Shown piece after piece: positions 236 to 62,434 of a DNA stretch of 64,000 nucleotides (position 1 is the stretch's first letter; each line of letters starts with the position of its first letter). The notes under the pieces are model-generated. The model worked only from the letters and a program-made list of their open reading frames with translations, did no database searches and was not told the origin of the DNA. Position numbers and translations under genes: made by a program. Origin of the DNA: Nitrospirota bacterium (GTDB taxonomy: Bacteria; Nitrospirota; UBA9217); assembly GCA_020052615.1 (NCBI GenBank), contig JAGVOT010000128.1, positions 72,250 to 136,249 on the forward strand, given 5' to 3'.

Positions 236-339
236 GGATGCATATTTTCGGGCCGGCACGAGAGATGAATAACCATGATAATACTTCTTGCCGCAATACA
301 CCATTTTAGGTATAATTCGTGTGTATGGAGGTGGCAGAT

Positions 340-552
340 ATGAGTGTACGAACGAACATCGTCATTGATGACGGCCTGGTCAACGAAGTGAAGGCCCTGA
401 CATCGCTCAAGACAAAAAAAGCTGTCGTCGACCTTGCACTCCAGGAGCTCCTGAAGCAGCTGCGGCGACGAAAGCTGCTCACCCTGAGGCGCAAGGGGCT
501 CTGGACGGGAGATCTGTCCCGCAGCAGAAGGGCGCGGCATGGTATTGATTGA
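340..552 (+). CDS. vapB: VapB-family type II antitoxin
   Basis: MSVRTNIVIDDGLVNEVKALTSLKTKKAVVDLALQELL... is typical of small antitoxins. A GGAGGTG RBS lies 7 nt upstream of the ATG at 340. The gene overlaps the downstream PIN gene by 14 nt. Confidence 0.7.
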   Translation: MSVRTNIVIDDGLVNEVKALTSLKTKKAVVDLALQELLKQLRRRKLLTLRRKGLWTGDLSRSRRARHGID

Positions 553-934
553 TACCAGCGCGTTCATCGAGTTTCTGAACCGCACGGGCGCCCGGGAAGA
601 CCTGATGATCGAGCGGTTGATCTCGAACAATGATGAGATCGCTATCCCCTCCGTTGCCCTGACCGAGATCCTCCAAGGCATCCGCAGCGACCACGAGCAT
701 GCCGAAATAAAAAAATCTCTCCTTACCTTCCCCTTGCTGTCGCTCCAGGATAATGAATCCTATTTGTCCGCCGCCGACCTCTATCGGAAGTGCAGGAAAC
801 GGGGGTTCACCGTCAGGAGCACCATTGACCTCTTCATCGCGCAGATCGCCATCGAACAGGGGGCTGAGCTGCTGCATCGCGATGGCGATTTCGACGCCAT
901 CGCCCGTGTTTCAGATCTCAAGATCTTTCACTAA
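539..934 (+). CDS. vapC: PIN-domain ribonuclease toxin VapC
   Basis: MVLIDTSAFIEFLNRTG... carries the acidic residues of a PIN domain. Translationally coupled to vapB. Confidence 0.85.
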   Translation: MVLIDTSAFIEFLNRTGAREDLMIERLISNNDEIAIPSVALTEILQGIRSDHEHAEIKKSLLTFPLLSLQDNESYLSAADLYRKCRKRGFTVRSTIDLFIAQIAIEQGAELLHRDGDFDAIARVSDLKIFH

Positions 935-937
935 CTC

Positions 938-2620
938 ATGCCCCTCTTCTACCCTCCCATAGATTTCGAAGCCGAGAAAGCAAGTGGTGACGAGATCAAC
1001 TATGCCGAGATCGCTGTACTCGAAGCGCTGGACAAAGGCCTCGACGACAAGTGGCACGTTTTTCACCGTCTCCACTGGCGCGAGGTGAGCCCGCAGGGCG
1101 AGAAGATGGGCGAAGCGGACGCCGTGATATTCCATCCTGTATATGGCATCCTGATCGTCGAGATCAAGGGCGGAGGCGTCCGGGCAAAGGACGGCGACTG
1201 GTTCCAGACCAATATCAGGACCGGTAAGGAGTATAAGCTCGACACTTCTCCCTTCGTGCAGGCCCGTTCCAGCCGCTTCCGCCTCTTCGACAAGCTCAAA
1301 AGGACCTCGCTCGGAGCAGGCTTTGAACCAAATACAGCCTTCACTTACACCGTCTGGTTCCCGGACATCACCTGGACCGAGGCTATTCCGGCGGATGCTC
1401 CGAACGGCGCATTTATTCTCGATTCCAAACACCTGAACAATCCGTCCCAGCACATCCGTAACATCCTGAAGCAATCCAACCCCCACGCGAAACCCTGGAC
1501 GGAGCGGGACACGAACATTCTCCTGCGGACCTTCGCTCCCGAGGTGAACCTGCTCGTCCCCCTCGGCGTAAACCTCGGCAGGATCCGTACCCGCATCTTT
1601 GCCATGACCGACAGCCAGCTCCGGGCGTACAAGGCCCTTCGGCAGCAGAAGCGGCTGCTCATAGAGGGCTGCGCCGGATCAGGAAAGACGCTTATCGCCG
1701 CATCCCTCGCCAGGGAACACCTGTCAGCTGGCAAGCGGGTGCTCTTCACTTGCTACAACAAGCGGCTCGCCCATGTGGTCGAGAATGACTTCGAGGGCAC
1801 ATCAGGCATCGACGTGGTGAACTTCCACGAGCTGGTTAAAAAGTACTGCGACGAGAGCGGAACCAAATACGCGGTACCCGATGGCAGGCAGGAGAAGGCC
1901 GACTTCTTCAAGAGTACCTGTGCAGAGCTTCTTCTGGACTGCTCGAGCAAATCTGATAAGCGCTATGACACGATCATTGTGGACGAAGCCTTCGATTTCC
2001 AGGAGACCTGGTGGACAGCGGTGGAATCACTAGGCGCGGAGGGATTTTCCTTCTACGTTTTCTTCGATCGAAACCAGGCGGTCTTCACAAACAGTACGTC
2101 GTGGAAGCCGCCCTTTGAAGCAGACCCTATCGTCCTGGAAACGAACGTTCGGAACACCCGACCTATCGGACGGTTCGCCGCAAAGCTCGGCAGGATAGCC
2201 GAAGCCCCTGATTACGGCGTGAACGAAGGCCCGGAGCCTGTGCTGCTGCCCTATAAGTCCGTCGACGAGATCCCCGAGATGCTGAAGAAGCTGCTCACAG
2301 AACTTACGGGCAAACAAAAGATCCTTCCGGGCAACATCGTCGTCCTGTCGCCGTACAAGCTGGACCACGAACGGCTGGGACTGGAGCAGTTCGTGAAGGA
2401 ACAGGAAAAACTGATCAGCACGGACCTGGAGGATGCGGAACAAGGAAAAGTCCGGATTGGGACGATTCAGTCATTTAAAGGATTGGAGGCGGATGTGGTG
2501 ATTCTCTGCGGCATCGACGGCCATCAGCCCGCCTGCAGCCCGACGAACCTCTATGTCGGCGCGACGAGGGCAAGATCGATGCTGTATGTGATGCATCAAG
2601 AGAAAACCCATATCCCTTAA
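938..2620 (+). CDS. NERD-domain protein fused to a UvrD-like superfamily-1 helicase
   Basis: N-terminal NERD-like region (AEIAVLEAL...GEADAVIFHPVYGILIVEIKGG). Walker A (CAGSGKTLIA) and Walker B (TIIVDEAFDF). C-terminal UvrD_C-like segment (IQSFKGLEADVVIL...YVGATRAR). Confidence 0.8.
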   Translation: MPLFYPPIDFEAEKASGDEINYAEIAVLEALDKGLDDKWHVFHRLHWREVSPQGEKMGEADAVIFHPVYGILIVEIKGGGVRAKDGDWFQTNIRTGKEYKLDTSPFVQARSSRFRLFDKLKRTSLGAGFEPNTAFTYTVWFPDITWTEAIPADAPNGAFILDSKHLNNPSQHIRNILKQSNPHAKPWTERDTNILLRTFAPEVNLLVPLGVNLGRIRTRIFAMTDSQLRAYKALRQQKRLLIEGCAGSGKTLIAASLAREHLSAGKRVLFTCYNKRLAHVVENDFEGTSGIDVVNFHELVKKYCDESGTKYAVPDGRQEKADFFKSTCAELLLDCSSKSDKRYDTIIVDEAFDFQETWWTAVESLGAEGFSFYVFFDRNQAVFTNSTSWKPPFEADPIVLETNVRNTRPIGRFAAKLGRIAEAPDYGVNEGPEPVLLPYKSVDEIPEMLKKLLTELTGKQKILPGNIVVLSPYKLDHERLGLEQFVKEQEKLISTDLEDAEQGKVRIGTIQSFKGLEADVVILCGIDGHQPACSPTNLYVGATRARSMLYVMHQEKTHIP

Positions 2621-2966: not shown

Positions 2967-3806
2967 TCAAATATAGCCGGCTACATATCGTTCGAAGCTC
3001 ATCCAATTAGGCGTTTGAGGTTTAGCCGGTAAGAAAGGAATTAATTTCGAATTGAGAATTCTACTCCTGAGATTGTGTTCCTCAAATCCAATAATCACTC
3101 TCATCGTATAAGTTTCATCCACTTGAATCCACTGCTCAAACCAACAGACGACGCCGACTGGCCTTTCCGCTTTCTCTACAATAACCTGTGCAGTACTTCT
3201 TAATTCACCTTCATGTTCTGCCCAATTGTCTGGAATTTTTATTAATATTATCGCCGGCCAATTTAGTGGCAATTGTTGCTTAGCCTTATGAAGGGAATTG
3301 GCAAATGAGGCTGTGGAGAACGCGGTAGTTTCGATCTTACACTTGATTTCGCAGAATAGTTCGTTTGAACCGTCGATGATGTGGATGTCGAAGTCTGCTC
3401 TCTTTTTTAGACTTCTTGTTACATACTTAAATGACAGCCCCCTATGCAAAAGAAATCTTCCACTTTCTATTTCAGCAATTACTGAATCCACATTCGCATC
3501 ATTCTTTAATCTTTCAAGAACATTTTGGAATCCTGCTATTTTACTCAAATTATAAAGACCTTCAGCTATGGTCAGTATTCTATTCTGAAGCTTCAATTCA
3601 TTCAACGAATTAGGCGAATCAGCAGTAAGGAAGGACAGATTCTTTTCAGTCAAGAGGCGTGTGCCCATCCATTCTCTGCCGTATAACTCAGAAAGTAAGG
3701 CACCTGACATTCCAAGCGCAATAAACTTCGGGTCATTATTTCCCAATTCCAATGACTTCCTATATAAATTAGATAGTGGGATGTTTTTCAACTTATTATG
3801 AAGCAT
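2967..3806 (-). CDS. Hypothetical protein with a possible PD-(D/E)XK-like motif; terminal gene of the AT-rich cyclase cassette.
   Basis: Long ORF in AT-rich DNA. Segment ...DFDIHIIDGSNELFCEIKCKIE... fits a D-x(n)-E-x-K restriction-endonuclease-like motif. No other recognisable domain. Confidence 0.4.
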   Translation of the reverse strand: MLHNKLKNIPLSNLYRKSLELGNNDPKFIALGMSGALLSELYGREWMGTRLLTEKNLSFLTADSPNSLNELKLQNRILTIAEGLYNLSKIAGFQNVLERLKNDANVDSVIAEIESGRFLLHRGLSFKYVTRSLKKRADFDIHIIDGSNELFCEIKCKIETTAFSTASFANSLHKAKQQLPLNWPAIILIKIPDNWAEHEGELRSTAQVIVEKAERPVGVVCWFEQWIQVDETYTMRVIIGFEEHNLRSRILNSKLIPFLPAKPQTPNWMSFERYVAGYI

Positions 3807-3965
3807 TTCTTCTTACTTTCTCCCAGAAGCTACTATTCCCGCGGCAACTAGACGCAGAATTATTGACGGAATACTTTAGCACAAAAATGCACTTTCTTCA
3901 CGAGGGTGCATTGGCGCCAACGAAGGAATTGCTGCGCGGAAAGTCTTTATCTAAAGAAGGCGAGA

Positions 3966-4268
3966 TTAAAGCGTTATGTCTTCAAGCGACCGAAGCTCTA
4001 CGCCTTCTAATATCGTAAGGCGCTTATGCATCATATCCAGCAATACCCTGATTTTATCATCAATCTGCTTTTCAGTAAGAGGGTTCTGTTGAGTGCTGTA
4101 AAGCTCGATCATTCTTTTTTGACAAAATTCGCGCATCTGTTTTGAATCTTCGTTCATCGGGAGGACCTCCTTTTTAAGACGTTTAGTTCCTGAAATAGGA
4201 CTCATTGTAATTATTGGGGCGCTTGCTTCGAGTCCGTCCTTACTCACTAATCTTTGTAGTCTCTTCAA
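3966..4268 (-). CDS. Hypothetical small helical protein. Overlaps the upstream ORF by 29 nt in another frame, so it may be the 3' part of a frameshifted gene.
   Basis: 100-aa ORF. Its 29-nt frame-shifted overlap with 4240..4542 is the only structural clue. Confidence 0.3.
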   Translation of the reverse strand: MKRLQRLVSKDGLEASAPIITMSPISGTKRLKKEVLPMNEDSKQMREFCQKRMIELYSTQQNPLTEKQIDDKIRVLLDMMHKRLTILEGVELRSLEDITL

Positions 4269-4542
4269 TGACCTTAGTGATTTCTCCCTCAGAAATATGA
4301 ACCTCTCTCCTGTTTATGCATATCTGACGGGAGCGGTGATGCTTGAGTTTATCATAAAGCCACGCCGCAACAAGACTAGAAGGAATGCCAGTTGCAACTC
4401 CAATAACGATGGACACGGCGATGTCGGTTCCAAAATCTTTTCTGATGATGATATCTGGCACTGTAAGTGAAATACCTGGAGGAACTTCGTTCTTCAGCAG
4501 AAGCGCATCTTTTTGGTTAGAAAAGGTCATTTCAAAATTCAT
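4240..4542 (-). CDS. Small protein with one predicted transmembrane helix.
   Basis: Hydrophobic stretch IAVSIVIGVATGIPSSLVAAWLY. Lies directly downstream of the cyclase-like gene on the same strand. Confidence 0.4.
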   Translation of the reverse strand: MNFEMTFSNQKDALLLKNEVPPGISLTVPDIIIRKDFGTDIAVSIVIGVATGIPSSLVAAWLYDKLKHHRSRQICINRREVHISEGEITKVIEETTKISE

Positions 4543-4616
4543 GAGGAATATTCTCCATTTTTAGATACAACGCCGCCTAAAGGTACGTGCTTGTTGGTAT
4601 TGTTGATAGATGACAT

Positions 4617-5354
4617 TCATCGCTTTGTGCTCTTGATAAAATTATAGAAGGCGATAGTGTTTCTGATTTTATTTCTGATTTTTCTTTCTTTGCACAAGCC
4701 ATGCGTTTGAGGTTTTTTCAAAAAGCTTTTCTCTATTAAAAAATTCAAATCAATATCCTGTGGGTTTTGGATTGCATGATCAGCCCAATTATACGCATAG
4801 ACCTCCTTCACAGTTCTATTCTTGAAAGGTATGGCGTATCGTGCAATAATTTTGTCTTTTTCGCATCTCAATTTTTCTTCATCACTGATTTTTTCAAAAC
4901 ATACGTCTGAAATCCAGCACCCGATCCAATCTTGTGCTTTTTCTTTTTCGAAAGCTTCTAAAAGTGGTTTTCCGGTAAGCATATCTTCGCAGGCGTAAAA
5001 TTCACCGCATGTGACTGTACCTCTGATTGGTAAGGCAAAGCAAATAGCAGCTTCAAACATACCGCGACAGGCATGCATAATTGTCTGGAAGCCTGTATCG
5101 GAGATTTCGTTTGTATAAATCAAAAAAGTATCAGCATAACTAAGTATTTTTATAATATCCTTTTGTAATGCATAATTCAATTGACTTTCAACATTTGTTG
5201 TAATCATGCGTTTCATATTCTTTTGGTCTATAGCAATTTTTTCAACGGTATTTACTTTGATCCAATCACGATATCCAAGAATATCGAAAAGAGCTATAAA
5301 ACCATACGTCGTATTGATGTCTTTTGGAGTAAGATTTAAGAAATTACAATTCAT
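4617..5354 (-). CDS. Minimal class-III nucleotidyl cyclase-like protein (adenylyl/guanylyl cyclase fold, PycC-like size).
   Basis: Motif spacing matches the class-III cyclase core. FIALFDILGYRDW matches F-x-D-I-x-G-F-T. ADTFLIYT matches the GD-[FY] metal site. IRGTVTCGEFY matches the R-I-G-I-H-x-G loop. GKPLLEAFEKE...IGCWISD matches the G-x-x-V-N-x-A-x-R-L-E ... I-x-V-S region. 245 aa. Confidence 0.5.
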   Translation of the reverse strand: MNCNFLNLTPKDINTTYGFIALFDILGYRDWIKVNTVEKIAIDQKNMKRMITTNVESQLNYALQKDIIKILSYADTFLIYTNEISDTGFQTIMHACRGMFEAAICFALPIRGTVTCGEFYACEDMLTGKPLLEAFEKEKAQDWIGCWISDVCFEKISDEEKLRCEKDKIIARYAIPFKNRTVKEVYAYNWADHAIQNPQDIDLNFLIEKSFLKKPQTHGLCKERKIRNKIRNTIAFYNFIKSTKR

Positions 5355-5434
5355 GGCAAATCCTCAAGAAAAACATGTTAAGGGGGACGTCAATAATACA
5401 TCGTGCCTATCTTATTATTTACTTCTGATACAAT

Positions 5435-5640
5435 GGCGCGAATGAGCGGCTGGTCCCGTAGGGACCGTCCGTTTCGATTCGCTTTGCTGGGCCGCGCTCC
5501 GCGGCACAGCAGAATCGACCGCTCATTCGCGCCACTGGGTCGCCGTCCGCGAAGCGGCGGCCCAGCGCGCGGGTGTTGGGCGCGTTTCGCAGCGACTCAC
5601 ACGCATGTTGGATCCTTGCGTCCAGTTGCGTCGAGTTCCA
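5435..5640. repeat. GC-rich palindromic structured element (REP/BIME-like or structured RNA) inside AT-rich DNA.
   Basis: Perfect 15-bp inverted repeat: GGCGCGAATGAGCGG at 5435–5449 and CCGCTCATTCGCGCC at 5520–5534. Nested palindromes GGTCCCGTAGGGACC and GCCGCGCTCCGCGGC. A further ~100 bp of GC-rich sequence follows to ~5640. It sits between the SEC-C gene stop and the cyclase gene start. Confidence 0.5.
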
Positions 5641-5672
5641 TTTGATCTGCAAAACTATTTGCTCTAATTCAT

Positions 5673-7289
5673 TTATTTGCCCATAGCAGCATATACGGTT
5701 CGCTCGCAAAAAGTAATTGCCAGTTCCTGCTGCTCTAGTTCTTTTAGTCTATCAATGTCGTCGTGATTTTTCATGAAATCTAATAATTTTTCTTTTGTAG
5801 TATCTTTGTAGACTTTAAAAAAAAAGTCAAAAAGCTCTAAGTGTGTTTCTGCTTTCCCCCCTTGCTCTCTGTAAACACCAAAAAACGTATCAGGGTATTT
5901 TTGGTATGCGGCCAACTCATCCTTGGTCAACGGGCAAGTTGCGGTGATGGACCGCCCATCTTCCAGTCTGTAAACACCCAGTGCTTTATCCCATGCGACA
6001 GTTGCTTCAACAAGTTCTCCTACAATGTCCTTTCCGTCATTATCAGGATCAGGAATAAGATATCGTTTTCCAACTATTAATCTTGCCTCTGTTTTACCAA
6101 AAGCCATTTCGGGTGCTTCCCCGTCGAAAGTTGATGGAATCTCCGAATGTTCGCGATTAGATTTAATCAGGTGATACATTTCATAGTGATCTTTTCGAAT
6201 CCTCAGACCTTCTCGGATATCAGACGTTGATAGTCCATAGTTGAACTCCGGAATTTTATAACCTTCAACGAAACCAAATCCTAATATGTTGGTAGCCTCA
6301 AGATTAAATTGATAGGGAAAGTTGGTAAGGAAAACATAGGCTGCAGGCGCGGGATTCCCTTTAATGAGAAGTCTCTCTTCGAGCTCACGAAGATGGGCAG
6401 ATATTTGTCGGACAAAATCTTTTATTTCATCGTTATTAGCCCTTGGAGGGCTATTCAATTCAATAAACACAACTCTTGGATGGTCTGCCCGCTTTTTCAA
6501 TGCACGGTAAAGTTGATCAGCTATATTTAGGGACGGATCGCCACCTTTTCGGGCTTTTGCTTCTACAGAAAATTTATTTCCGGTTTCCTTGTATGTGGCT
6601 GTGAATTCACAATGCGATGTGCTACTATCTGTCTCATCCTCAAGCTCTAAGACGAATCCAGCTTTTATGAATGAAGCGGCGACAAATGTTTCATAATAGG
6701 CACCAAGGAACTGGTCCATATTTTTAAGTCTATGCACGAGGCTTTTTTGCAATTCTACATTGTGAGCGAGTAAGTATAGATTATAAGAAAGTCCGAGATA
6801 GGCGTCGAGCGCACCTGTGGTTGGTGCTGAATGTATTTCTTTTGACGTATTGAAATGCTCTTTTGTGTATCTGCTTACAAGTTCGGCCCATATAAGAATC
6901 GAGTGCCTTTTTTGTGGAGCTTTAGCCACTTCTCCTAGCCACCACTCTTGGCCAAAGCAGGTTTTTATGTAATCGAATAAGAAATCATGGAATGTTTTCC
7001 ACTTTTCCGACCAGCGGAGTTCATTGCCTACTGCAATATATCTTTGACCTTTAAATTTTTCTGAAATAATTGGTCTTCCAAGCCCTTGTTGTTTTTGTCG
7101 TTGAAATTCTAATGCCGCATGTTCAGCAATTTTATTTTGGATTGATTTTTCAAAAGCTAAGTTGCTGGGTATCATTTTTTGTCTTCCTGCCGCATCACCA
7201 TGACATTTTTTAACTTTTTTCCCACTACCACATGGGCAGGGGTCATTCCGTCTCAGTTTTGCCCTTCGGTTTTTTTTACTCATTAGCAA
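5673..7289 (-). CDS. SEC-C motif-containing protein with a large uncharacterised C-terminal region.
   Basis: N-terminus ...RRNDPCPCGSGKKVKKCHG is a SEC-C metal-binding motif. The remaining ~500 aa have no recognisable catalytic motif. Confidence 0.55.
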   Translation of the reverse strand: MLMSKKNRRAKLRRNDPCPCGSGKKVKKCHGDAAGRQKMIPSNLAFEKSIQNKIAEHAALEFQRQKQQGLGRPIISEKFKGQRYIAVGNELRWSEKWKTFHDFLFDYIKTCFGQEWWLGEVAKAPQKRHSILIWAELVSRYTKEHFNTSKEIHSAPTTGALDAYLGLSYNLYLLAHNVELQKSLVHRLKNMDQFLGAYYETFVAASFIKAGFVLELEDETDSSTSHCEFTATYKETGNKFSVEAKARKGGDPSLNIADQLYRALKKRADHPRVVFIELNSPPRANNDEIKDFVRQISAHLRELEERLLIKGNPAPAAYVFLTNFPYQFNLEATNILGFGFVEGYKIPEFNYGLSTSDIREGLRIRKDHYEMYHLIKSNREHSEIPSTFDGEAPEMAFGKTEARLIVGKRYLIPDPDNDGKDIVGELVEATVAWDKALGVYRLEDGRSITATCPLTKDELAAYQKYPDTFFGVYREQGGKAETHLELFDFFFKVYKDTTKEKLLDFMKNHDDIDRLKELEQQELAITFCERTVYAAMGK

Positions 7290-7404
7290 TTAACTTCCTG
7301 ATTTCGCCGCCGTGAGGGGCGCGTTTTTAGCGACCCTCTCGGCGTGGTTGAAATTATTGTGTCGTTTTTTATTCGCGCCTACCGAGCTGTCTATGTTGAG
7401 GTGC

Positions 7405-8061
7405 TTAAAGCCTGCGAAGTGATTGATCAATAGCTTTCATGACAACTGGCTTCAAGCGTGTATACAATGTTCTGACATCAGTAGCAGAAATAAGAACATC
7501 GCCTTTCTCAATCAAGGGGCGTGGATGCATATCCAGCAGCCGCTTCGTTGCTCTGCCGCTGTTGTGCGTAATACAGTTACGAATTTCCCGCGAGACAGAG
7601 ATAAAATTTGTAGTCCAAAGTTGATTAGCAACGGCTGGCCCATATGCGTCGTTCAGGTATTTCGTATAGTTTCTATCTGTCACACGAATACTCTTCCCGG
7701 TCACAGATGCAAGCAGTCGCACAAGAAGATTTTCGTAAGCATAGTAAATGGCGCAGAAGGAGCCTTCGGAAATTTTCCACAGCGATGCTTTAAATGCATT
7801 CAATTTGAGATATTCGTTCCATAAATCCTGCTTCGACTTTCCAATTATCGGTGTCGTGCTGTTAACCGCATCGTAGACCCCCGTTACATAAAGCCATGGC
7901 AATACAAATGAGCGCGAAGCTCCCCACCAATGCGCGGAAAAATCCTCTACTGGCTCCAATAACTCTGATTTTTCGACTGCGGCAAAAAGCTTAACGAACC
8001 ACTCTTTGTCGTGGAAGTCTGCGAAGCTAGATAAATCGCTTTCAATAAATATGGTTTTCAA
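7405..8061 (-). CDS. Hypothetical protein
   Basis: 218-aa ORF in AT-rich DNA, co-oriented with the cassette. No recognised motifs. Confidence 0.45.
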   Translation of the reverse strand: MKTIFIESDLSSFADFHDKEWFVKLFAAVEKSELLEPVEDFSAHWWGASRSFVLPWLYVTGVYDAVNSTTPIIGKSKQDLWNEYLKLNAFKASLWKISEGSFCAIYYAYENLLVRLLASVTGKSIRVTDRNYTKYLNDAYGPAVANQLWTTNFISVSREIRNCITHNSGRATKRLLDMHPRPLIEKGDVLISATDVRTLYTRLKPVVMKAIDQSLRRL

Positions 8062-8571
8062 TAAAAACCCCAGTTGTTAACGCGCTGGTGAAACGACGTT
8101 CTCTGAGCGACATTCTTGAAAAGCCAGATCAAAGTGCCGCAAGATATGACGCCATGTTAAGCAACATGCCAACTCCAAGAAGAAGCAGGCCACCTACGAA
8201 ATTACGGAATAGTCAAATTGAAAGGGAGTTGCAGCAATTCGTATAGCAGCAAATCGGAGTGAAATATACAGTATTGCGACAACTGGTAACTACAACAACT
8301 ACAGGAAGGACCATACACTCCATATTTCAGTCAGCATTCTTCAATTCTAGTGGATCTTGGTCCCCGTGGCGAACACCTACAAGAGTGCAGTCAGAAGCTA
8401 GCGATAATTCTGAAAATTACGAGATGAAATCTGGATTGAACACTAGCGTCACTCGCCGCTTTCAGCGAGTCGATGTGCACACGAATGTTAAGGATATCAA
8501 ATTTAAGATCAAATATTATGATTATGGTGTAGCAGGCTGTGTTCCATTTGTGATTTTCGTCCATGACTTCA

Positions 8572-9621
8572 TCATGAAACTCCAAGTCGCTGAAGAATAA
8601 ATCTAGCTATCTCCGCGGGTTGATGCTGTCGTGCATCGATGTACCCGTCAATGGAGAGAAGCCCCTCAATAGGAGCATCGTCAAACCGAACGAACATTAC
8701 TTGGTCATCCAGCTTCGCCTTGATCATGTCTCGGACGGATCGCCACTCAAGGCCACACCATTGTTTGTCGGCATACTCTCCAGAAAGGAATATGACAACA
8801 AGATCAGAGCGATTTCGGTAAATGTCTTGTAGTAAGAAGTCTAGGTTCGGGCGGGATAACTGGGCCTGATAGTCAAAGTCGTAGAAGATCGAGTCGGTTG
8901 GAAGCTTCGGCCTGAGTTCATCCACGACCGATGATACGTGAAGGCGCCTCTCTCCAGGGAATGACATTGCAACGCGAAATCTGAGATGCTTGATGTCTGC
9001 AGTGGACCGATCCACCTTTCCAAACGCTTTATCGCGGAGGAGATGCTCAAGAGCAAGGAGAGAGAGGGAAAAAGGATCTGGCTCGATCCGCGAGGATCGC
9101 TCACGTCCTGGATTCGTAAGAGAAAGACGATACAGAAGGTAGTTGAGCCAAATCGCGAGTGGGTTGTCGTTCGAGCATGCGGTTGGCTTTGAAGATGGTA
9201 CACGTAACTTTTCAGACTTCAAAATATCATCGACAACCTCTAGCCGCAGAGCGTGTGCCTCATTTTTGTCAAAAAGAGAACCGGCTCGTTGCGCCATGCG
9301 AACAAAGAGATCGCACCCCTCTCCTTCAAGGATTCCCATGCACGTCAGGTCCGCGCCGCGGATACCCCACTTCAGGTCGCTCGATTCAATGCTCTTCGCA
9401 AGGCTCATAGCATTATCTTCGCCTTCGATAGCTCCGTAATATTGCCAAAGCATAATTGCATGGTTTGGACTTGCGAAGGCACGATTGAAGCTGACCCCAC
9501 TTTGAGTTACGTAAAACAGCGAGAAGCTCAAGGGGTGGAACTTGGCTGATTCAACCTCAAATGCTTTAATGAGTCTGGCAATTTCGTCTGTCTTATAGGA
9601 AAACGCCACGCTCTCTCCCAT
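8572..9621 (-). CDS. TIR-domain protein with an uncharacterised ~220-aa N-terminal domain.
   Basis: C-terminal region SIFYDFDYQ...RSDLVVIFLSGEYADKQWCGLEWRSVRDMIKAK...VMFVRFDD matches TIR hallmarks (DxFISY-like start, S-x-x-Y-x-x-S-x-WC-x-x-E). Confidence 0.6.
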   Translation of the reverse strand: MGESVAFSYKTDEIARLIKAFEVESAKFHPLSFSLFYVTQSGVSFNRAFASPNHAIMLWQYYGAIEGEDNAMSLAKSIESSDLKWGIRGADLTCMGILEGEGCDLFVRMAQRAGSLFDKNEAHALRLEVVDDILKSEKLRVPSSKPTACSNDNPLAIWLNYLLYRLSLTNPGRERSSRIEPDPFSLSLLALEHLLRDKAFGKVDRSTADIKHLRFRVAMSFPGERRLHVSSVVDELRPKLPTDSIFYDFDYQAQLSRPNLDFLLQDIYRNRSDLVVIFLSGEYADKQWCGLEWRSVRDMIKAKLDDQVMFVRFDDAPIEGLLSIDGYIDARQHQPAEIARFILQRLGVS

Positions 9622-9786
9622 TTTTTACTTAGAAGTCTGACCGCGTGAGTGTACCGTCGTACATTTCAGCGGACGGACACGACCGCTGTTTGGATTTATG
9701 TCTTTTTTGTCGCATTTCAATGGCTGATGCCCTTTTATTCATGATTGTGTCGTTCTATCTATTATCTGTATCTCTCGAAAACGCGC

Positions 9787-10914
9787 TTACTCGTCATTTC
9801 TGTCGTATCTCTGGACGCCGTTGAGCGAGCTATCTTCATCGCAGACTATTCCCACACTGTGTCTCGCTCTGGTGACGGCAACATAGAACTTTGCCTTAAC
9901 AGTTTCAATTTGTGCTAAGTCGCCGCTCTTCAGATATTCCCTTATTTTCTCCGTCGGGTAGATAAGTACCGTCTTGAAAGTCAGCCCTTTGGAGGCCCCG
10001 TAATTGTAATCTGGTGATTTGGCGTTGTTATACCGCAATATTGTGGATTTGAATTTCTCCCGGTAGTGTTCGACGTCCGCCTCTTTGACAAGAAATACTC
10101 CTTGGTGATCGGGAATATCTCTTCTGCACTCCTCGCAGTCACATGGTTCGCATTGCGTATATTCTGGATAGAGCTTTGAGGAAAACTGACAGATTTGCTT
10201 GTTGTTCCTGTGGGATTTGTTCAGCGACTTCGTGTCTATGGGGCAGATGCCTTTCTGACACTTGTCCGATATGAACTTGCTTATTCCTCCACCGCGATAT
10301 TGCTTGTGCTTCGATGAATCATTTGTGGAATAGGTGCCTTGCCTCGGATCGCCTACCATGAGCACGTGTGCAGGAGATTTGAAGAACAGCTTTAGAAGTT
10401 CAAAATCCCATCCGGCTAAGTCCTGCACCTCGTCTATAAAGATATATGGATATATCCTGGTCAACCTATTGATAACCTCATTCCCAACTATCTTGTTGCA
10501 CTCATAAACGAATTTAGAAATCTTGTCCGAATATATCTTGAGATCCCTGGTGAAATAGAACTGGTTGAAACTATTTTCGCCCCAATATATAGGTCTGCCG
10601 CTCTTGTCACAATATCTCAAGCCCGACTTCCCTTCGATCAGATAGAATCCGATCTTCTCGGAAAACAAATCCCCCATGGCTCCCTGGTATGGTCTGACGC
10701 CGTGCTGCAACAAGAAGGAAAACCACGTTTGCACCGTGATGTTGCTAGGGATGCATTTCTTCTTTGCGAGTATTTTGTCTCTTATTTCCTTCTCGTTCGT
10801 TTCCGTGAAAGTGGTGATCAGAACATTAGCATCCTGGACAGTTAAAGCTTCTTCTACCAGAAGAGTCGTCTTGCCCGATCCGGCCGCGGAAATAATGAAG
10901 CTGTTTTCACCCAT
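9787..10914 (-). CDS. gajB: Gabija GajB, UvrD-like superfamily-1 helicase
   Basis: Walker A (ISAAGSGKTT). DEAD-like IFIDEVQDLAGWD. C-terminal KGLTFKTVLIY...YVAVTRAR. Lies immediately downstream of the OLD-family ATPase-TOPRIM gene. Confidence 0.75.
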   Translation of the reverse strand: MGENSFIISAAGSGKTTLLVEEALTVQDANVLITTFTETNEKEIRDKILAKKKCIPSNITVQTWFSFLLQHGVRPYQGAMGDLFSEKIGFYLIEGKSGLRYCDKSGRPIYWGENSFNQFYFTRDLKIYSDKISKFVYECNKIVGNEVINRLTRIYPYIFIDEVQDLAGWDFELLKLFFKSPAHVLMVGDPRQGTYSTNDSSKHKQYRGGGISKFISDKCQKGICPIDTKSLNKSHRNNKQICQFSSKLYPEYTQCEPCDCEECRRDIPDHQGVFLVKEADVEHYREKFKSTILRYNNAKSPDYNYGASKGLTFKTVLIYPTEKIREYLKSGDLAQIETVKAKFYVAVTRARHSVGIVCDEDSSLNGVQRYDRNDE

Positions 10915-20785: not shown

Positions 20786-21513
20786 TTACCTGATGGCTTC
20801 CTGACATTCATTTCTGAAACTGCATACCCGGCATTTACCTGGTGTCGGTGTCGCCCTTGGTGACTGACGGAACTGCAATGCCTTTCGCATCTGACCAATG
20901 ATCGACCTCACCGACTGCATAGCCCGTTGCATTTTAGGATTATCCTTGCGGAACGTGAACGACTTGTTCGGATACCGCAGATCAGCCTCCTTCTTACCCA
21001 CCACAAGCATCTGGGCAGCAACATAGAGCACATCTCCATGCCGCGCATTGCCCTTAATAGTCGCGCTCTTATATTCGACGGTCTTTCCCCGCTCAACCAC
21101 ATCAGGCTTGCAGGACAAGCCCAGGTCGTTATTCCGGTAAACCGTGACGCCTCTGCCGTCCAGATCCTGGTCAACGACCCATGACGTGATGCCGATTTTC
21201 CTTCTATCCCTGCGAAGCTTCAAATAGTACAAAGCGCCTATTGTAAAAGCGACAAGAGCCAAAGTAAGCATGCAATACCTCCAATCGTCATGAATTTTGA
21301 TATGACCGACTGCGTCTTCTGGGCCTGTCTTACCGGCCCGGACTTTTGTTGATGGAATTCCTGGCCACGTCTGGAAGGCTGAGTTGAGCATGACTGCTGT
21401 TGCAGCCTCCTCCGGCCTCCTGTTCTCAGGAGATACCATTGTCTGGGGCAGAAATCCCACTGTTTGAGCTCCGATGCGTTGATATTAGGCTTGTTTTTCT
21501 TCGTCATTTTCAT
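20786..21513 (-). pseudogene. Cas4/DUF83-like PD-(D/E)XK nuclease, apparently frameshifted (two overlapping ORFs in different frames).
   Basis: Frame A (21,513→) encodes INASELKQWDFCPRQWYLL, a Cas4-like N-terminal Cys motif. Frame B (→20,786) encodes PDVVERGKTVEYKS...HGDVLYVAAQML and C-terminal GKCRVCSFRNEC (D...ExK plus three Cys). The frames overlap over 21,238–21,460. Confidence 0.45.
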
Positions 21514-22696
21514 CCTCCGTTAAGTTTTCAGCTGACGCGGCCTTCTCTTGTTCGGCCATCTTCCCATCAAGAAACTTCTCGAATGCCGACCCGTCCCTTC
21601 TGGTCAGGTTCGGGATAAACCGGGAGTAGACCTTGAACAACATCTCCGTGTTGGCATGTCCCAGCTGCCTTGCCACCCATTCCGGATTCTCTCCGGATGC
21701 CAGCCACATCGTTGCCGCCGTATGGCGGGTCTGATAGGGTGTTCGGTCGGACAGCTCTGCCTTCTTGAGCGTTGGATACCACACCCTCTTGGAGATGTTA
21801 TTATGGTCAAGCGGCTTTCCACGTTTTGTTGTAAAGACGAGGTCACCGTTCCCAGTCTTCTCCTTTTGCCTCTTCAAGGCTTCTTCAACTGCTTTACTCA
21901 TATCGATATCCCGGACGGAACTCTGTGTTTTGGGGCTGACCCACTGTCCGCTCTGCCAGGTTTCGCGGACTTGGATCCTTTTCCCCGCAAAATCTACGTA
22001 CTTCCACTTGAGCCCGTCGATCTCTGCGGTCCTCATACCGGTAAAGAACCGGACCACGTAGTAGTCGTTGAACTCCTCCGGAACATGCTTCAGAAGCTGA
22101 AATACCTCGTCCGGCGAGAAAGGCATTATGTCGGTCTTCTTGAGCGGTAAGGGCTTGAAGTTAGTGAACGGGGTAGTAAAATCGTACTGTTCCGCCGCCT
22201 CGTTCATGATCAAACGGAGCACCAGGATGATATTGTTGATCCGTTTGTTGCTGATCTTCTGATCCTTCTTGCCCGGCAGGTCCCCCAGAGCCGTCCTAAA
22301 CTCCTTCACCATCCACTTGGTGATATCAAGAACCGGCTTGTCCTTGAAGTACGGGATCAGGTGCCGCTTCATGACCGACTGGAAGTCCCGTTGGACCGAG
22401 GGTTTCCAGGAGATCTTGTTATTCTTGTACCAGGTGTTGGCATACTCCTCGAACATCACGCCGATCTTTGGGCCGGTTTCTTCATTGAATTTCGATGCGT
22501 TCTTGCTATCAGGAAAATACTTGCCGTAACTGAAGGTCCCGAGCCTAATCTCACTCTCGATCCTTTTAAGAGCATCGTTCATGAGTTTGATGTTCTCAGG
22601 ACTTTCCTTGAGCTCCGTATACTCCTTGCATCGAATTCCTTTATACCTGAAGTCGAAGTACAGATACCCGGCCTCGGTGCGACGAACCTTACCCAT
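21485..22696 (-). CDS. int: Tyrosine site-specific recombinase (phage-type integrase)
   Basis: N-terminal Arm-type DNA-binding region. C-terminal catalytic region ...RHTAATMWLASGENPEWVARQLGHANTEMLFKVYSRF carrying the R/H/Y residues. Confidence 0.9.
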   Translation of the reverse strand: MGKVRRTEAGYLYFDFRYKGIRCKEYTELKESPENIKLMNDALKRIESEIRLGTFSYGKYFPDSKNASKFNEETGPKIGVMFEEYANTWYKNNKISWKPSVQRDFQSVMKRHLIPYFKDKPVLDITKWMVKEFRTALGDLPGKKDQKISNKRINNIILVLRLIMNEAAEQYDFTTPFTNFKPLPLKKTDIMPFSPDEVFQLLKHVPEEFNDYYVVRFFTGMRTAEIDGLKWKYVDFAGKRIQVRETWQSGQWVSPKTQSSVRDIDMSKAVEEALKRQKEKTGNGDLVFTTKRGKPLDHNNISKRVWYPTLKKAELSDRTPYQTRHTAATMWLASGENPEWVARQLGHANTEMLFKVYSRFIPNLTRRDGSAFEKFLDGKMAEQEKAASAENLTEDENDEEKQA

Positions 22697-24216: not shown

Positions 24217-25401
24217 TCATGATGTTCTTGTAAGCGCCGATAACGCAGATTCCACCCAGCCGAAGCCGATTCTTTCTTGCTCAAGACGCAGATTCCTGCG
24301 TATTCGGTTGTCTCGCAAATCATCATAAAGCGCCCTTTCCTCCGGATGCAACATAGCCAAGTCGCGTAGAGTCTGCTTTTCTTCCTCGCCCCATAGCGTT
24401 TCAAATGCAAACAACGTATTGCGGTCCATCAGAAACGACTCTACGTGTTCAAATTGACTGCGAAGTTGATCAAGGATCGCGAAGCCATGGGTATCAATAT
24501 CACCCCAATAAACAATACGGCGGTGGGAAAGCCACTCGGCTTTACTCAACATCTCGAAACCGTAGCCCGCGCCAAAGATAACCATACTGTCTTTGACCTG
24601 CGGAAAGGCTAAGAAGTTGATCTCGTTCTCGGTGATGAAGACACGTGAGACCTTGGGCTCGATACTGGCAAAACTCTCAGCATCAAGGGTAATGTCCTGT
24701 ATAAGAGCGCCCGGCAATAAAGCGCGCTTTGGATCGATTACCCGAAAGCGGATGCGCTCCGGCTTATCACAAAATCCATAACGCTTTGCGAATTGCCTCG
24801 TTCCAGAGGCCGTCGGATCAATTACTGCGGGCGATAGGACGATATCCAGCAACTCTTCGAGCACTGCACGATGGGCTTCGATGAACTTGCTGTGGACACT
24901 TGGGAGGTCTACTTGTCTTAGGTACACGCCAGGGCGTGGATGTTTTTGTAGCCAGCCGACTATTTCTAGCAGCAGACTCCACTCGTTAGAGAGCTCTAAC
25001 GCGCGAATCGGCCGTTTGGCCAACCAGCCCACCACTTGAGGCTGGCGCTTACGTGTTACATCGATCAACGCAGTGAAGCGGGTAACATCTCGTTGTTTGC
25101 TAATGAGTGCCAAGGCATCTTCGACGGTATCGATCCATACCTCATGGGGTACAGCATTTTCACCGAAGACACGGTGCTTGAACTCACGCATCTCGACTCG
25201 GCAGTGAGGCATCGCCCGAAGCTCACTGATCCAGGTGCGCGCCTCTTCGAAGTGATCGGCCATTTCACCCGACGTAGGGCCTTTGAACAGCAAACGCTTC
25301 GGGAATAGCGACTCACCCGTAACAAGACTGGCCAGCAGTTCTCCCCGATCCCATAACTTTTGCACCTGGGCACGAAGGTTAACCGGCCTTGTCCAATTCA
25401 T
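24217..25401 (-). CDS. jetD: Wadjet JetD (DUF3322/DUF2220, Toprim/topoisomerase VI-like)
   Basis: C-terminal VIFGAGYGFEML...IVYWGDIDTHGFAILDQLR matches the JetD/MksG Toprim-like module. Last gene of a four-gene jet operon. Confidence 0.8.
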   Translation of the reverse strand: MNWTRPVNLRAQVQKLWDRGELLASLVTGESLFPKRLLFKGPTSGEMADHFEEARTWISELRAMPHCRVEMREFKHRVFGENAVPHEVWIDTVEDALALISKQRDVTRFTALIDVTRKRQPQVVGWLAKRPIRALELSNEWSLLLEIVGWLQKHPRPGVYLRQVDLPSVHSKFIEAHRAVLEELLDIVLSPAVIDPTASGTRQFAKRYGFCDKPERIRFRVIDPKRALLPGALIQDITLDAESFASIEPKVSRVFITENEINFLAFPQVKDSMVIFGAGYGFEMLSKAEWLSHRRIVYWGDIDTHGFAILDQLRSQFEHVESFLMDRNTLFAFETLWGEEEKQTLRDLAMLHPEERALYDDLRDNRIRRNLRLEQERIGFGWVESALSALTRTS

Positions 25402-28400: not shown

Positions 28401-28772
28401 TCCCAGGATAACAGAGTAATTATTGTGGTCGCGAAGCGCTACAGGTTTGGCTGTGCCACTCACCTCATTGCGCTCGGACTTAAAATGCCCGAGCACATAG
28501 GATCGTAGCGTGCGTTCCTTGTTGTCGGCCCCGGCTGCCTTGTTGTAGGCGATGCGGTGCGCCGGCACCAGCAGCGTGGTGACCGCATCCACCAGTGTCG
28601 ATTTGCCCGATCCTATATCGCCGGTGAGCAAGATGTTCTTGCCGCTCGGATTCAGCGCCCACACTCGGCCATCAAAGGTGCCCCAGTTGAATACCTCTAG
28701 ACGATGCAAACGGAAGCCCGAAAGCACATCGCCGTCTGCACCAGCCAGACCCACGGTTTGCGCATCATCCAT
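25398..28772 (-). CDS. jetC: Wadjet JetC (SMC-like ABC ATPase)
   Basis: N-terminal Walker A (LLTGDIGSGKSTLVDA). Long coiled-coil middle. C-terminal signature/D-loop (GKSGGQKEKLAYTILAASLAYQF...FRFVVIDEAFGRGSD). Start placed at MDDAQTV to avoid overlapping jetB. Confidence 0.85.
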   Translation of the reverse strand: MDDAQTVGLAGADGDVLSGFRLHRLEVFNWGTFDGRVWALNPSGKNILLTGDIGSGKSTLVDAVTTLLVPAHRIAYNKAAGADNKERTLRSYVLGHFKSERNEVSGTAKPVALRDHNNYSVILGVFHNAGYEQTVTLAQVFWMKDSLTQPARFFVGAERALSIAEDFAHFGPDITGLRKKLRGLGAEVVDSFPTYGAWFRRRFGIENEQALELFHQTVSMKSVGNLTDFVRSHMLEPFDVEPRVSALIAHFDDLNRAHVAVLKAKRQLELLSPLVSDCERYNSLLSQVEELRACREALGPYFAGLKLGLLEKRISGLDGEWRRQDSQVKRTKELRDAQRVTEGELKQSIADNGGDRIERLAADIRSKDTEREKRLEKAQRYGKLVRAVGEATAETEAEFLMLHGRFRDLGNGLKTREAELQNELTEQGVNFRQGKQEHEKLTSEINSLKVRRSNISGEQVSMRAALCEALGLPEEDMPFSGELLQVRDDERDWEGAAERLLRSFGLSLLVPDKHYVAVSHWVDRTHLRGRLVYFRIRQGSQRDLPNLHRDSLARKIVIKPDSPFYDWLEREVAHRFDLACCTTQEQFRRETRAITLAGQIKSPGERHEKDDRYRLDDRGRYVLGWTNAAKIAALEAKERKLETSLGELGVLIGKIQSDQKTLDERLTALSKLDEYVDFREIDWQSLALEVAQLTDEKQRLESASDVLKQLSERLRALRGELADTEIKLAKKTQELGATQAKLRAAEDLRDQALALVSTPEQTSHSFHFERLNAIRSETVGEHQLTVESCDNRERDMRDLLQSRIDAEDLKRTRMRDKIIQAMASYKEEFKLETAEVDASIEAAVEYRNMLHQLKNDDLPRFEARFKELLNENTIREVANFQSQLARERETIKERIAHINKSLTQIDYNAGRYIVLEAQPTPDAEIRDFQTDLRACTEGALTGSDDTQYSEAKFLQVKHIIERFRGREGLSEQDRRWEAKVTDVRNWFVFAASERWREDNSEHEHYSDSSGKSGGQKEKLAYTILAASLAYQFGLEWGAVRSRSFRFVVIDEAFGRGSDDSAQYGLRLFAQLNLQILIVTPLQKIHIIEPFVSSVGFVQNEEGRASKLRNLSIEDYHAEKARIVG

Positions 28773-62021: not shown

Positions 62022-62222
62022 ATGAAGATTGATATCGAGAAAGAGGATGACGGGCGCTGGATCGCCGAAGTTTCCGATCTCCCTGGCGTTTTGGCTTACG
62101 GAAAGACCCGTGAAGAGGCCATCGCCAAGGTTGAAGCGCTTGCTCTACGAGTGATCGCGGACCGAATAGACCATGGCGAAACCATCCCGGAACTCGATGA
62201 ACTCTTCGCGGTCCCTGCATGA
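62022..62222 (+). CDS. hicB: HicB-family type II antitoxin
   Basis: MKIDIEKEDDGRWIAEVSDLPGVLAYGKTREEAIAKVEALAL matches the UPF0150/HicB-like fold. Overlaps hicA by 4 nt. Confidence 0.7.
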   Translation: MKIDIEKEDDGRWIAEVSDLPGVLAYGKTREEAIAKVEALALRVIADRIDHGETIPELDELFAVPA

Positions 62223-62434
62223 GCCAATGGCCTTCCACGAAAGCCCGCACCGTACTTGCCGCTCTTCTTCATATCGGCTGGTCAATCAAACGAGAGACAG
62301 CCGGTTCCCACCGAGTTCTTTCACGGCCAGGATGGCCTGACTACGTATTCGCCTTTCACGATGGAATAGAAATCGGCCCCCGTATGCTTGCCCGTATTGC
62401 GAAGAAGACGGGCCTCCGCCCTGACGACCTTTGA
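62219..62434 (+). CDS. hicA: HicA-family mRNA interferase toxin
   Basis: ...KARTVLAALLHIGWSIKRETAGSHRVLSRPGW...AFHDGIEIGPRMLARIAKKTGL matches the HicA/YcfA pattern (GW...GSH...H...G). Confidence 0.75.
   Translation: MSQWPSTKARTVLAALLHIGWSIKRETAGSHRVLSRPGWPDYVFAFHDGIEIGPRMLARIAKKTGLRPDDL

Follow-up and report, generated by a model that had tools for sequence, protein, structure and literature searches.

A standalone class-III-cyclase-fold protein in a probably mosaic, possibly integron-type block of a Nitrospirota defence island

A survey of open reading frames (ORFs) in a 64,000-nt stretch of a Nitrospirota contig (hereafter the window) placed six co-oriented minus-strand ORFs at positions 2967-8061, as the initial annotation had described. 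The genes and associated features, in the order in which they are read on the minus strand, are the following.

7405..8061, minus strand: A218, a 218-aa protein forming a module of its own; no family assignment
7296..7356, minus strand: attC-like palindromic repeat, copy 1, 48 nt past the A218 stop, with a YYYAAC box and a 14-bp imperfect stem
5673..7289, minus strand: B538, an N-terminal SEC-C zinc knuckle and a conserved core; standalone module
5427..5618, minus strand: GC-rich structured element (GC 0.68-0.80), attC-like copy 2 (5556-5618) and two further hairpins
4565..5431, minus strand: window-specific segment of 867 bp, carrying only the C245 gene
4617..5354, minus strand: C245, a standalone 245-aa protein with a predicted class-III-cyclase fold
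4240..4542, minus strand: D100, a conserved membrane protein of 100 aa with a single membrane pass; opens the D-E pair
3966..4157, minus strand: E63, a soluble protein of 63 aa; follows D100 in the D-E pair
2967..3806, minus strand: F279, a helical N-terminal domain and a predicted PD-(D/E)xK nuclease domain; standalone module

In the GC profile no other part of the window is as AT-rich as this block, which has a GC content of 0.413 versus 0.557 at 13-64 kb and 0.46 in the TIR/Gabija block. Its neighbours in the island are Gabija, TIR, a NERD-helicase, Wadjet, an AGS_C protein (31216-32556, outside the six-gene block) and an integrase. The last is a tyrosine recombinase of the phage/P4 type at 21485-22696, with an Arm-DNA-bind_2 domain, 13 kb off the block and in the same orientation as the cassettes. 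These findings support the earlier proposal that the block was horizontally acquired, and place it inside a large integrase-associated defence island. The genes had also been described as a tightly packed, co-oriented set; the orientation is as described, but the packing was overstated, the intergenic gaps being 121, 318, 74, 82 and 159 nt. No consensus promoters were found for the mostly single-gene units of the block. Domain and defence-profile searches of the six proteins gave no match to cNMP-binding, SAVED, TIR, STING or SMODS domains, in agreement with the initial remark that the partner proteins hold no canonical cNMP-binding, SAVED or TIR sensor.

The structure of C245 was predicted with high confidence (pLDDT 93.3), and structural comparison identified the class-III nucleotide cyclase (palm) fold. 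As modelled, C245 has a genuine class-III-cyclase fold, as had been proposed for this protein from its sequence. Canonical adenylyl/guanylyl cyclases outscored PycC as structural matches; the Pycsar cyclases (7r65, 8jsf and 8jsz) were also similar. The best matches in BFVD were giant-virus proteins, one of them annotated with a guanylate cyclase domain. In the model, D24 lies at the end of beta1 and D75 in the beta2-beta3 hairpin. In an hhalign alignment of 16% probability, both residues fall on the metal-binding Asp pair of Cya2/CyaB, and R111 corresponds to the beta4 Arg; D24 and D75 are putative metal ligands. In canonical class-III cyclases the Asn and Arg of alpha4 (VNxAxR) are transition-state stabilisers. 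At these positions C245 has a hydrophobic and an acidic residue, L132 (Val in the family) and E136, according to the same low-confidence alignment (probability 16%). The proposed match to the motif order of the cyclase core therefore holds for both metal Asp residues and for the beta4 Arg, and fails at alpha4. With the alpha4 Asn/Arg replaced, and given the weak alignment, C245 might have an unusual activity or product, or none at all. PycC enzymes likewise rely on a pair of metal-binding Asp residues (PMC11224242).

Across 113 family members, which are only 20-39% identical to C245 and have a mean column identity of 17%, D24, R111 and G145 were invariant, and D75, G112, G117, K178 and K229 were conserved in at least 90%. 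A Lys in beta7-beta8 is strictly conserved in the family, and the helices that extend the C-terminus (residues 190-245, approximately) carry the conserved K229, T233 and F236. PF00211 was absent from the matches of 37 family members scanned at E ≤ 10 (best 25 of 26 families) and gave no match in a scan of 10 relatives; the C245 profile matched no cyclase in the PDB. PADLOC gave no match for C245. The 113 family members matched three families in PADLOC, none of which was the curated PycC profile.

The C245 family comprised 8,962 cluster representatives (50% identity clusters) at E ≤ 1e-3. Nearly all of the best 150 of these 8,962 were 200-280 aa long; members are about 240 aa and almost all standalone among the matches listed. 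Fusions to GmrSD_N/DUF262 and to TPR occur, with the cyclase-like domain C-terminal. Homologues adjoin Qat, Mrr, type I/IV R-M, TA and Abi genes and were found in defence islands, plasmids and proviruses, with HMM E values down to 5e-52 on proviral contigs. The six genes had been read as one Pycsar/CBASS-like cassette that might recur in other defence islands, and neither expectation was borne out. In 67 C245-homologue loci (47 distinct groups), tblastn detected none of A218, B538, D100, E or F279, and de novo clustering of the same loci revealed no recurrent neighbour family. A co-oriented small hydrophobic ORF followed the C245 homologue in only 5 of 35 loci, and blastn homology between C245 and its closest loci was limited to the ORF. 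The C245 family is very large, unnamed and unannotated, and these findings indicate that it occurs alone.

D100 lies 74 nt downstream of C245. It has one hydrophobic helix (residues 41-59; KD19 2.03), which agrees with the single transmembrane segment assigned to it initially, and its 27 homologues (53-92% identity) are all about 100 aa long. D100 and E are paired in loci L076-L079, and E63 is 65% identical to a 62-aa gene that follows the D homologue. A second 100-aa ORF overlapping D100 had been listed; it is an ORF-extension artefact and the real gene encodes 63 aa, as judged from a conserved GGAGG Shine-Dalgarno sequence with an ATG at 4157 and from in-frame stops in the homologous locus L076 within the supposed N-terminal extension. 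A family HMM found no C245-like ORF in L076-L079; D100-E63 is a conserved pair that is found elsewhere without C245. Co-transcription of C245 and D100, and a locally acquired functional link between them, are possible in this genome.

The remaining proteins have distributions of their own. The SEC-C motif reported for B538 was recovered as PF02810 (E 4.5e-8); translation probably begins at the ATG at 7283. An alignment of homologues revealed an invariant core E198...E226...E241-x-K243, and B538 may be a PD-(D/E)xK-type nuclease. Its plasmid homologues (30-44% identity) occur singly, next to a type I R-M system, ParB or IS3. The D...E-x-K motif of F279, also noted at the outset, was conserved in 17 homologues (E112/E114, D138/D140, E153 and K155), and its model has a PD-(D/E)xK restriction-endonuclease-like fold; on this model F279 is a PD-(D/E)xK nuclease. 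No Pfam family matched F279, and its N-terminal helical domain was without a match. Homologues of F279 adjoin N6/N4 DNA methyltransferases; no methyltransferase adjoins F279 in the window. Profiles of B538 and F279 were not related, and their homologues live in unrelated contexts; the two are independent modules. A218 matched no Pfam, NCBIfam or PHROG family, had no plasmid or PDB relatives, and was found in none of the examined loci with C245, B538, D100 or F279 homologues. An R-x4-H motif (RNCITH) and a weak PADLOC match to RTasHEPN (E 0.0066) give a weak hint that it is a HEPN protein.

The boundaries between several of these genes carry palindromic repeats. An attC site consists of an R'' box (RYYYAAC), an imperfect palindrome with extra-helical bases and an R' box (GTTRRRY), and spans 57-141 bp. 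The repeat unit found here is about 60 nt long. Copy 1 gave a 95% blastn match to the L076 element and scored 65.1 bits with covariance model R1 (E 3.9e-15); copy 2 scored 44.5 bits (E 1.1e-9). Behind B538 the repeat continues to a length of about 190 nt as the GC-rich element, which had an RNA fold z of -4.85; relative to the L076 copy, 13 of its 59 pairs were compensatory and none was broken. No Rfam family matched the element or the repeats. Copies occur in two lineages, the window and L076 (four in a row); all seven are co-oriented and lie 1-54 nt past gene stops. The R'' box matched at 6 or more of 7 positions in 7/7 copies (7/7 match in two) and GTT followed the stem in 5/7 (full 7/7 box match in one), for chance rates per flank of 0.18-0.22 at 6 or more of 7 and 0.011-0.015 at 7/7, the copies being non-independent. 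R1 found no copy after C245, D-E, F279, TIR or Gabija. By sequence, the palindromes possibly have the anatomy of attC sites.

The C245 segment adjoins the second repeat. The GC-rich element ends in ATTGTATC, which is the left boundary of the segment, and the 3' flank of the segment, AGGCGGCGTTGTATC, matches the 3' arm and R' box of the repeat. A direct repeat (A/G)TTGTATC bounds the segment (5427-5434 and 4564-4571), both junctions falling exactly at the R'-like box. Alignment with L076 showed that in L076 the corresponding flanks sit 6 nt apart. The segment is most simply explained as an insertion, relative to L076, between the GC-rich element and D100.

We consider it probable that the block is a mosaic of at least five modules, possibly of integron type, with a standalone cyclase-fold protein among them. 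The modules would be A218, B538, C245, the D100-E63 pair and F279, each distributed independently. From the attC-like repeats at two or more module boundaries and the discrete C245 segment, we infer that the region was most likely built up cassette by cassette, through site-specific insertion of single genes (integron-type, CALIN-like). The main competing account of the palindromes, to which we give an appreciable but lesser probability, is that they are REP-like repeats or terminator/RNA-stability hairpins, the block being an ordinary defence-island mosaic that arose through other recombination routes, and TTGTATC microhomology. It would fit the restriction of the repeat to the window and the L076-L079 lineage, the presence of three copies in 64 kb with one far from the block, the degeneracy of several R' boxes, and a boundary 8-mer that is not enriched in the window; no integron integrase (IntI) was seen in the window, which has only the P4-like recombinase. 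However, all seven copies follow the orientation of the upstream gene just past its stop, four mark off consecutive gene units in L076, the YYYAAC box is in register in every copy, with GTT after the stem in most, and the C245 junctions coincide with the R'-like box. In addition, the copies in the two genomes share 87-96% identity, compared with about 74-78% for the genes common to both.

In the mosaic reading, C245 would be an active, probably homodimeric, two-metal NTP-converting enzyme and a self-contained single-gene module, with no receptor or effector encoded in cis. It would take effect by converting or depleting nucleotides, or via a target encoded by the host or in trans, and the neighbours (the nuclease-like B538 and F279, D100-E63 and the possible HEPN protein A218) would be separate defence-type cargo. 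A Pycsar/CBASS-like system, in which the cyclase product activates D100 or F279 through a non-canonical receptor, was suggested by the C245 fold and its similarity to Pycsar cyclases, the conserved membrane protein directly downstream, the F279 nuclease and the co-orientation of the genes in a defence island. We regard it as very improbable: C245 was never accompanied by any of the other five genes in the 47 homologue groups, D100-E63 occurs where no C245-like ORF is present, F279 homologues accompany methyltransferases rather than cyclases, and a downstream small hydrophobic ORF is infrequent. C245 also looks like a recent insertion, and D100 and E63 have no domain of the cNMP-binding, SAVED, TIR or STING type. 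It is less improbable, though still quite unlikely, that C245 is a dead nucleotide-binding pseudo-cyclase with a sensing, sponge or regulatory role. One PDB entry, 6yii, was deposited as a class-III adenylyl-cyclase-like ATP-binding protein and suggests the existence of proteins of this kind; however, the (near-)invariance of the metal Asp pair and beta4 Arg at so low a column identity is typical of an active two-metal site, and the domain occupies an output-like, C-terminal position in fusions. As a speculation that we hold to be unlikely, the family as a whole could consist of self-sufficient single-gene enzymes of this fold that lack the alpha4 Asn/Arg, make or consume a nucleotide non-canonically in an anti-phage or counter-defence function without a dedicated receptor, and spread as integron-type cassettes.

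To our knowledge, the established cyclic-nucleotide immune systems (CBASS, Pycsar, type III CRISPR, Thoeris and Panoptes) pair a synthase with a dedicated receptor or effector. The C245 family travels alone in defence islands, plasmids and proviruses and so does not fit this pattern. Its members retain the metal site, whereas the catalytic helix is apparently altered; they could be single-protein nucleotide-converting defence or counter-defence enzymes, or synthases signalling to host-encoded targets; a single 245-aa gene makes them cheap to test. The repeats may help to separate one functional unit from the next in defence islands. The analysis also warns against the common misreading of co-oriented neighbours in an island as one system. 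Integron cassettes were recently found to stockpile phage-defence genes, and attC-like repeats bordering defence-type genes would extend that finding to an environmental lineage.

Compared with Pycsar, C245 has the cyclase fold with two putative metal Asp residues; Pycsar, however, is defined by a cyclase with a CNBD-bearing PycTM or PycTIR, and a partner of this kind is missing for C245 both here and across the 47 groups, D100 having only 100 aa and no cNMP-binding match. CBASS combines, in one operon, a CD-NTase cyclase (cGAS/DncV-like, Pol-beta fold) with a SAVED, STING, TM or nuclease effector; C245 has a predicted class-III palm instead of the CD-NTase fold, and SMODS and SAVED are missing from the six proteins. 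Canonical class-III cyclases (PF00211; 3et6, 1cs4, Cya2 2w01 and CyaB 3r5g), which act as head-to-tail dimers, share the fold of the C245 model, whereas C245 lacks detectable PF00211 membership, the alpha4 Asn/Arg and a regulatory domain, and adds a C-terminal extension. F279 resembles PD-(D/E)xK restriction endonucleases in its E...D...ExK motif, modelled fold and homologues beside N6/N4 methyltransferases, but has no Pfam match or adjacent methyltransferase in the window. The likeness of C245 to Panoptes/mCpol is that of a minimal standalone palm protein in a defence context beside a small membrane protein. A CALIN is a cluster of attC sites that lacks an integron integrase; two or more such sites must lie within 4 kb on the same strand (PMC4889954). 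The block has only two to three recognisable attC-like sites and no IntI was seen. It shares with CALIN/integron arrays co-oriented, mostly single-gene units, palindromes that are imperfect, about 60 nt long and RYYYAAC-like or GTTRRRY-like at their ends, cargo of the defence type, and a C245 unit with TTGTATC at either boundary, the pattern that a G|TT crossover would give.

The initial annotation read six co-oriented minus-strand genes as a candidate Pycsar/CBASS-like signalling cassette. All six claimed ORFs were present at the claimed coordinates; they are listed here together with E63, which replaces one of them (numbers in names are lengths in aa).

7405-8061, minus strand: A218
5673-7289 (likely ATG 7283), minus strand: B538, SEC-C protein
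4617-5354, minus strand: C245, class-III-cyclase-fold protein
4240-4542, minus strand: D100, membrane protein
3966-4268, minus strand: second 100-aa ORF of the initial annotation
3966-4157, minus strand: E63, 63 aa, conserved GGAGG Shine-Dalgarno and ATG at 4157
2967-3806, minus strand: F279, PD-(D/E)xK nuclease-like protein

The block was AT-rich, as had been claimed: its GC content was 0.413, compared with 0.557 over 13-64 kb and 0.46 in the TIR/Gabija block beside it, and that of the C245 gene was 0.343. Horizontal acquisition of the block is therefore plausible. Packing, which had been called tight, was instead moderate (gaps of 121, 318, 74, 82, and 159 nt). The second 100-aa ORF, which was said to overlap D100, is an artefact: the strong conserved GGAGG and ATG 4157 define E63. 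In the homologous locus L076, in-frame stops occurred within the supposed N-terminal extension of the E ORF. A promoter/terminator scan gave a result no better than shuffles. The sole Rfam match in 2.5-9 kb, a miRNA, arose by chance.

C245 had no match in Pfam, NCBIfam, or PADLOC, and PHROGs gave nothing meaningful, just a weak unknown-function PHROG (E 1.7e-4). Neither phmmer nor profile search against PDB revealed a meaningful match. A word-indexed protein search revealed 41 homologues, every one annotated as hypothetical, and the AlphaFold2 model made from their alignment (A1) was confident (pLDDT 93.3, pTM 0.90). GGDEF domains (at most 9.8) and Cas10 palms (about 9) appeared further down the fold-comparison ranking. 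Only two matches in the viral structure library were significant; both were giant-virus proteins, one carrying a response regulator annotation and the other that of a guanylate cyclase domain protein. The cyclase fold assigned to C245 by eye was correct. Exhaustive HMM search at E<=1e-3 revealed 8,962 representatives of 50%-identity clusters (3,484 at E<=1e-10), indicating that the family is far larger than the 41 homologues first found. Among the 150 matches listed, nearly all were 200-280 aa long and covered the whole profile.

Alignment A2 comprised 113 family members with 20-39% identity to C245 and had a mean column identity of 17%. In it D24, R111, and G145 were invariant, and conservation was at least 90% at L26, G27, D75, G112, G117, G128, A134, Q141, W143, P176, K178, K229, T233, and F236. 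The model places D24 at the end of beta1, D75 within the beta2-beta3 hairpin, and R111 at the start of beta4; in class-III cyclases, these positions hold the two Asp residues that bind metal and the Arg that binds phosphate. Profile-profile alignment of the family with Cya2/CyaB was weak (probability 16%, pairwise E 0.0017), with consistent topology. In this alignment D24 and D75 paired with the metal Asp residues, R111 with the CyaB beta4 Arg, and G128 with the Gly just before helix alpha4, while at the transition-state Asn/Arg positions of the alpha4 'VNxxxR' the C245 family had L/V and E. PycC enzymes depend on two Asp residues (PMC11224242). C245 belongs to a very large family of class-III-cyclase-fold proteins that stand alone and lack annotation; their metal site is conserved, and their catalytic helix is altered. 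Literature searches turned up no account of a class-III cyclase-like defence gene that stands alone. As part of the overall explanation, we lean slightly towards C245 being an active single-gene NTP-converting enzyme that would work without a receptor in cis.

Loci with C245 homologues were collected from exact-protein look-ups, species-representative genomes, and metagenomes, giving 67 loci that collapse to 47 distinct groups. A218, B538, D100, E, and F279 were absent from all 67 by tblastn. When 789 ORFs flanking the homologues were clustered de novo, no family was common to more than three groups, and the three groups that shared one were syntenic distant relatives. In a homology-free test, a co-oriented small hydrophobic ORF was downstream of the C245 homologue in just 5 of 35 loci. 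Between the window and its closest C245 relatives (66-77% nucleotide identity), homology begins at the ATG and stops within the ORF. These findings, with cassette members in none of the 47 groups and no recurrent neighbour family, contradict a six-gene signalling system: the fold call is right but the system call is wrong. In L013, the gene upstream of a close homologue of C245 encodes 538 aa and so has the size of B538, but is unrelated to it.

C245-homologue loci lie in typical variable or defence regions. The homologue lies directly behind a Qat system (L016), near Abi_C and PhdYeFM (L007), or adjoining Mrr, resolvase, and ArdC (L010), an HEPN/nucleotidyltransferase pair (L001), or PemK/XRE (L013); in one case it adjoins yceD-rpmF-plsX, behind an rve fragment (L008). 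PADLOC analysis of 141 neighbours revealed type I methyltransferases, type IV restriction enzymes, and several PADLOC candidate families. Distant family members are present on proviral contigs (full-length HMM matches, E down to 5e-52) and on Bacillus plasmids. In one such plasmid (L073, 5419-6735) and in protein P0100, the C245-like domain is fused behind GmrSD_N/DUF262. In two others (L074, 4337-5648; L075, 4302-5645) the gene is translationally coupled to an upstream ~220-aa gene having a PF21648 'integron cassette protein'-like domain; A218 has no similarity to this partner. Another relative (P0125) carries N-terminal TPR repeats. The PF21648 coupling and the GmrSD_N/DUF262 and TPR fusions may hint at sensor-output architectures. 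Partners are evidently lineage-specific, with none in the window's clade.

The D100 family comprised 27 homologues of about 100 aa each (53-92% identity); D100 has one hydrophobic helix, and no real relative was found in the viral collection. In lineage L076-L079, a D of 74% identity precedes an E of 65% identity at the same spacing as in the window, without C245, A218, B538, or F279, and the family HMM revealed no hidden C245 relative at the L076 locus. D100-E63 is therefore the sole conserved multi-gene unit of the block. Upstream of its D-E pair, L076 has genes of 545 and 219 aa that match B538 and A218 in size but are unrelated to either.

B538 homologues (30-44% identity) on Caballeronia, Agrobacterium, and Rhizobium plasmids stand alone, adjoining a type I R-M system, a ParB gene, or IS3. 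In addition to its SEC-C knuckle, B538 has invariant E198...E226...E241-x-K243 in common with these homologues, residues that, judged from sequence, would be compatible with a PD-(D/E)xK-type core; hhalign found no relation to the F279 nuclease family. A218 gave a weak PADLOC RTasHEPN match (E 0.0066) across an R-x4-H motif, and no relatives in plasmids or PDB. F279 homologues adjoin N6_N4 DNA methyltransferases in two loci, convergent with the methyltransferase in one and behind a methyltransferase and an MTaX1/HNH_2 gene in the other (L071, 6001-7884; L072, 4004-6837). The window F279 has no methyltransferase beside it, and may therefore be an orphan nuclease or a modification-dependent one.

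In the 318-nt spacer between B538 and C245 lies a GC-rich element of ~190 nt with three hairpins (5427-5618, minus strand; GC 0.68-0.80), which folds far better than shuffles (z -4.85) and matches no Rfam family. L076 has a copy of 74% identity (5783-5972), immediately upstream of its D100 homologue. The two copies show compensatory changes in 13 of 59 predicted pairs, and no broken pairs. Given its position in L076, the element may be a leader or ncRNA of D100-E63; it may also be an extended attC-like site. Alignment A7 revealed a clean junction:

L076: ...CCATTATATC / CTAAAAATGGAG...ATG(D)
window: ...GCCATTGTATC / AGAAG...[C245]...GGCGGCGTTGTATC / TAAAAATGGAG...ATG(D)

Thus, an 867-bp segment with C245 alone (4565-5431), flanked by a direct TTGTATC repeat, replaces 6 bp of L076. 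The boundary 8-mer GTTGTATC showed no enrichment in the window.

The 5′ hairpin of the GC-rich element also occurs elsewhere, as a dispersed repeat of about 60 nt. A covariance model built for it (R1) revealed three copies in the window and four in L076:

7296-7356: after A218
5556-5618: after B538
63362-63422, plus strand (opposite to the block): 21 nt after a 229-aa ORF; best-scoring, 74 bits
L076: after the 545-aa, 219-aa, HNH, and 159-aa genes

The third copy is separated from the block by 55 kb and lies in a patch where GC is lower (0.50); by eye, the 229-aa ORF (62651-63340) is hydrophobic and a 71-aa ORF upstream of it (62219-62434) is HicA-like. The L076 array (3001-10287, metagenome contig k141_249033) has the repeat after successive units: a HATPase_c_3-like 545-aa gene, a weakly HEPN-like 219-aa gene, D-E...HNH (279 aa), and an Mrr-like 159-aa gene. 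It resembles a sister cassette array whose cargo differs.

The repeat could be an attC site marking cassette boundaries, or a REP-like or terminator repeat. The latter is favoured by the absence of full R1 copies after C245, D-E, F279, TIR, and Gabija, by degenerate R' boxes in several copies, and by the restriction of the repeat to two lineages: R1 gave no further matches, either elsewhere in the window or among 60-odd additional loci, and no copy was present in the viral collection. At C245 only a half-site was found, its 3′ flank AGGCGGCGTTGTATC matching the 3′ arm of the repeat and a GTT-type box. Against a REP-like or terminator repeat, all seven copies share the orientation of the upstream gene and start 1-54 nt past its stop. 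Their anatomy also resembles that of attC, with a YYYAAC box in register in all seven (RYYYAAC 7/7 in two) and GTT directly after the stem in five (GTTGAAC = 7/7). Taken together, we consider the attC reading an even to slightly better than even proposition.

As a whole, the window is one large defence island, with Gabija-like genes and the following features:

938-2620, plus strand: NERD-UvrD-type helicase (PADLOC RTasNERD-Hel, DRT-associated helicase, 2.5e-60)
8572-9621, minus strand: 349-aa protein, C-terminal TIR_2 (E 1.6e-7), N-terminal 250 aa unannotated
12826-34933: rest of island, with UvrD/PDDEXK AddAB-like helicase/nuclease pair, HD-domain protein, and WYL/WCX regulator
21485-22696: tyrosine integrase, Arm-DNA-bind_2
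24217-30857: Wadjet JetD/JetC/JetA
31216-32556: AGS_C-domain (CD-NTase-associated sensor) protein

No reverse transcriptase gene was noticed beside the helicase. The TIR_2 protein, which had no PADLOC match, sits between the block and Gabija (gap 510 nt). A small ORF pair at 319-934 (plus strand; 77 and 131 aa, 'MVLIDTSAFIEFLN...') resembles VapB/VapC (PIN) toxin-antitoxin by eye.

The block is a mosaic of independent defence-type modules, in which the neighbours of C245 are unrelated cargo, and which were probably brought together by site-specific cassette insertion. The six-gene system dissolves, leaving two leads: an orphan cyclase-fold family and attC-like cassette boundaries. C245 has the class-III cyclase fold but not the receptor logic of Pycsar. 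Phage-defence genes are now known among the cargo of integron cassettes. A CALIN is a cassette array without a nearby integron integrase (PMC4889954). The repeats of the window and L076 resemble integron attC sites in anatomy. The window has a single integrase, which is P4-like and lies 13 kb from the block, a point that also favours a REP-like or terminator repeat.
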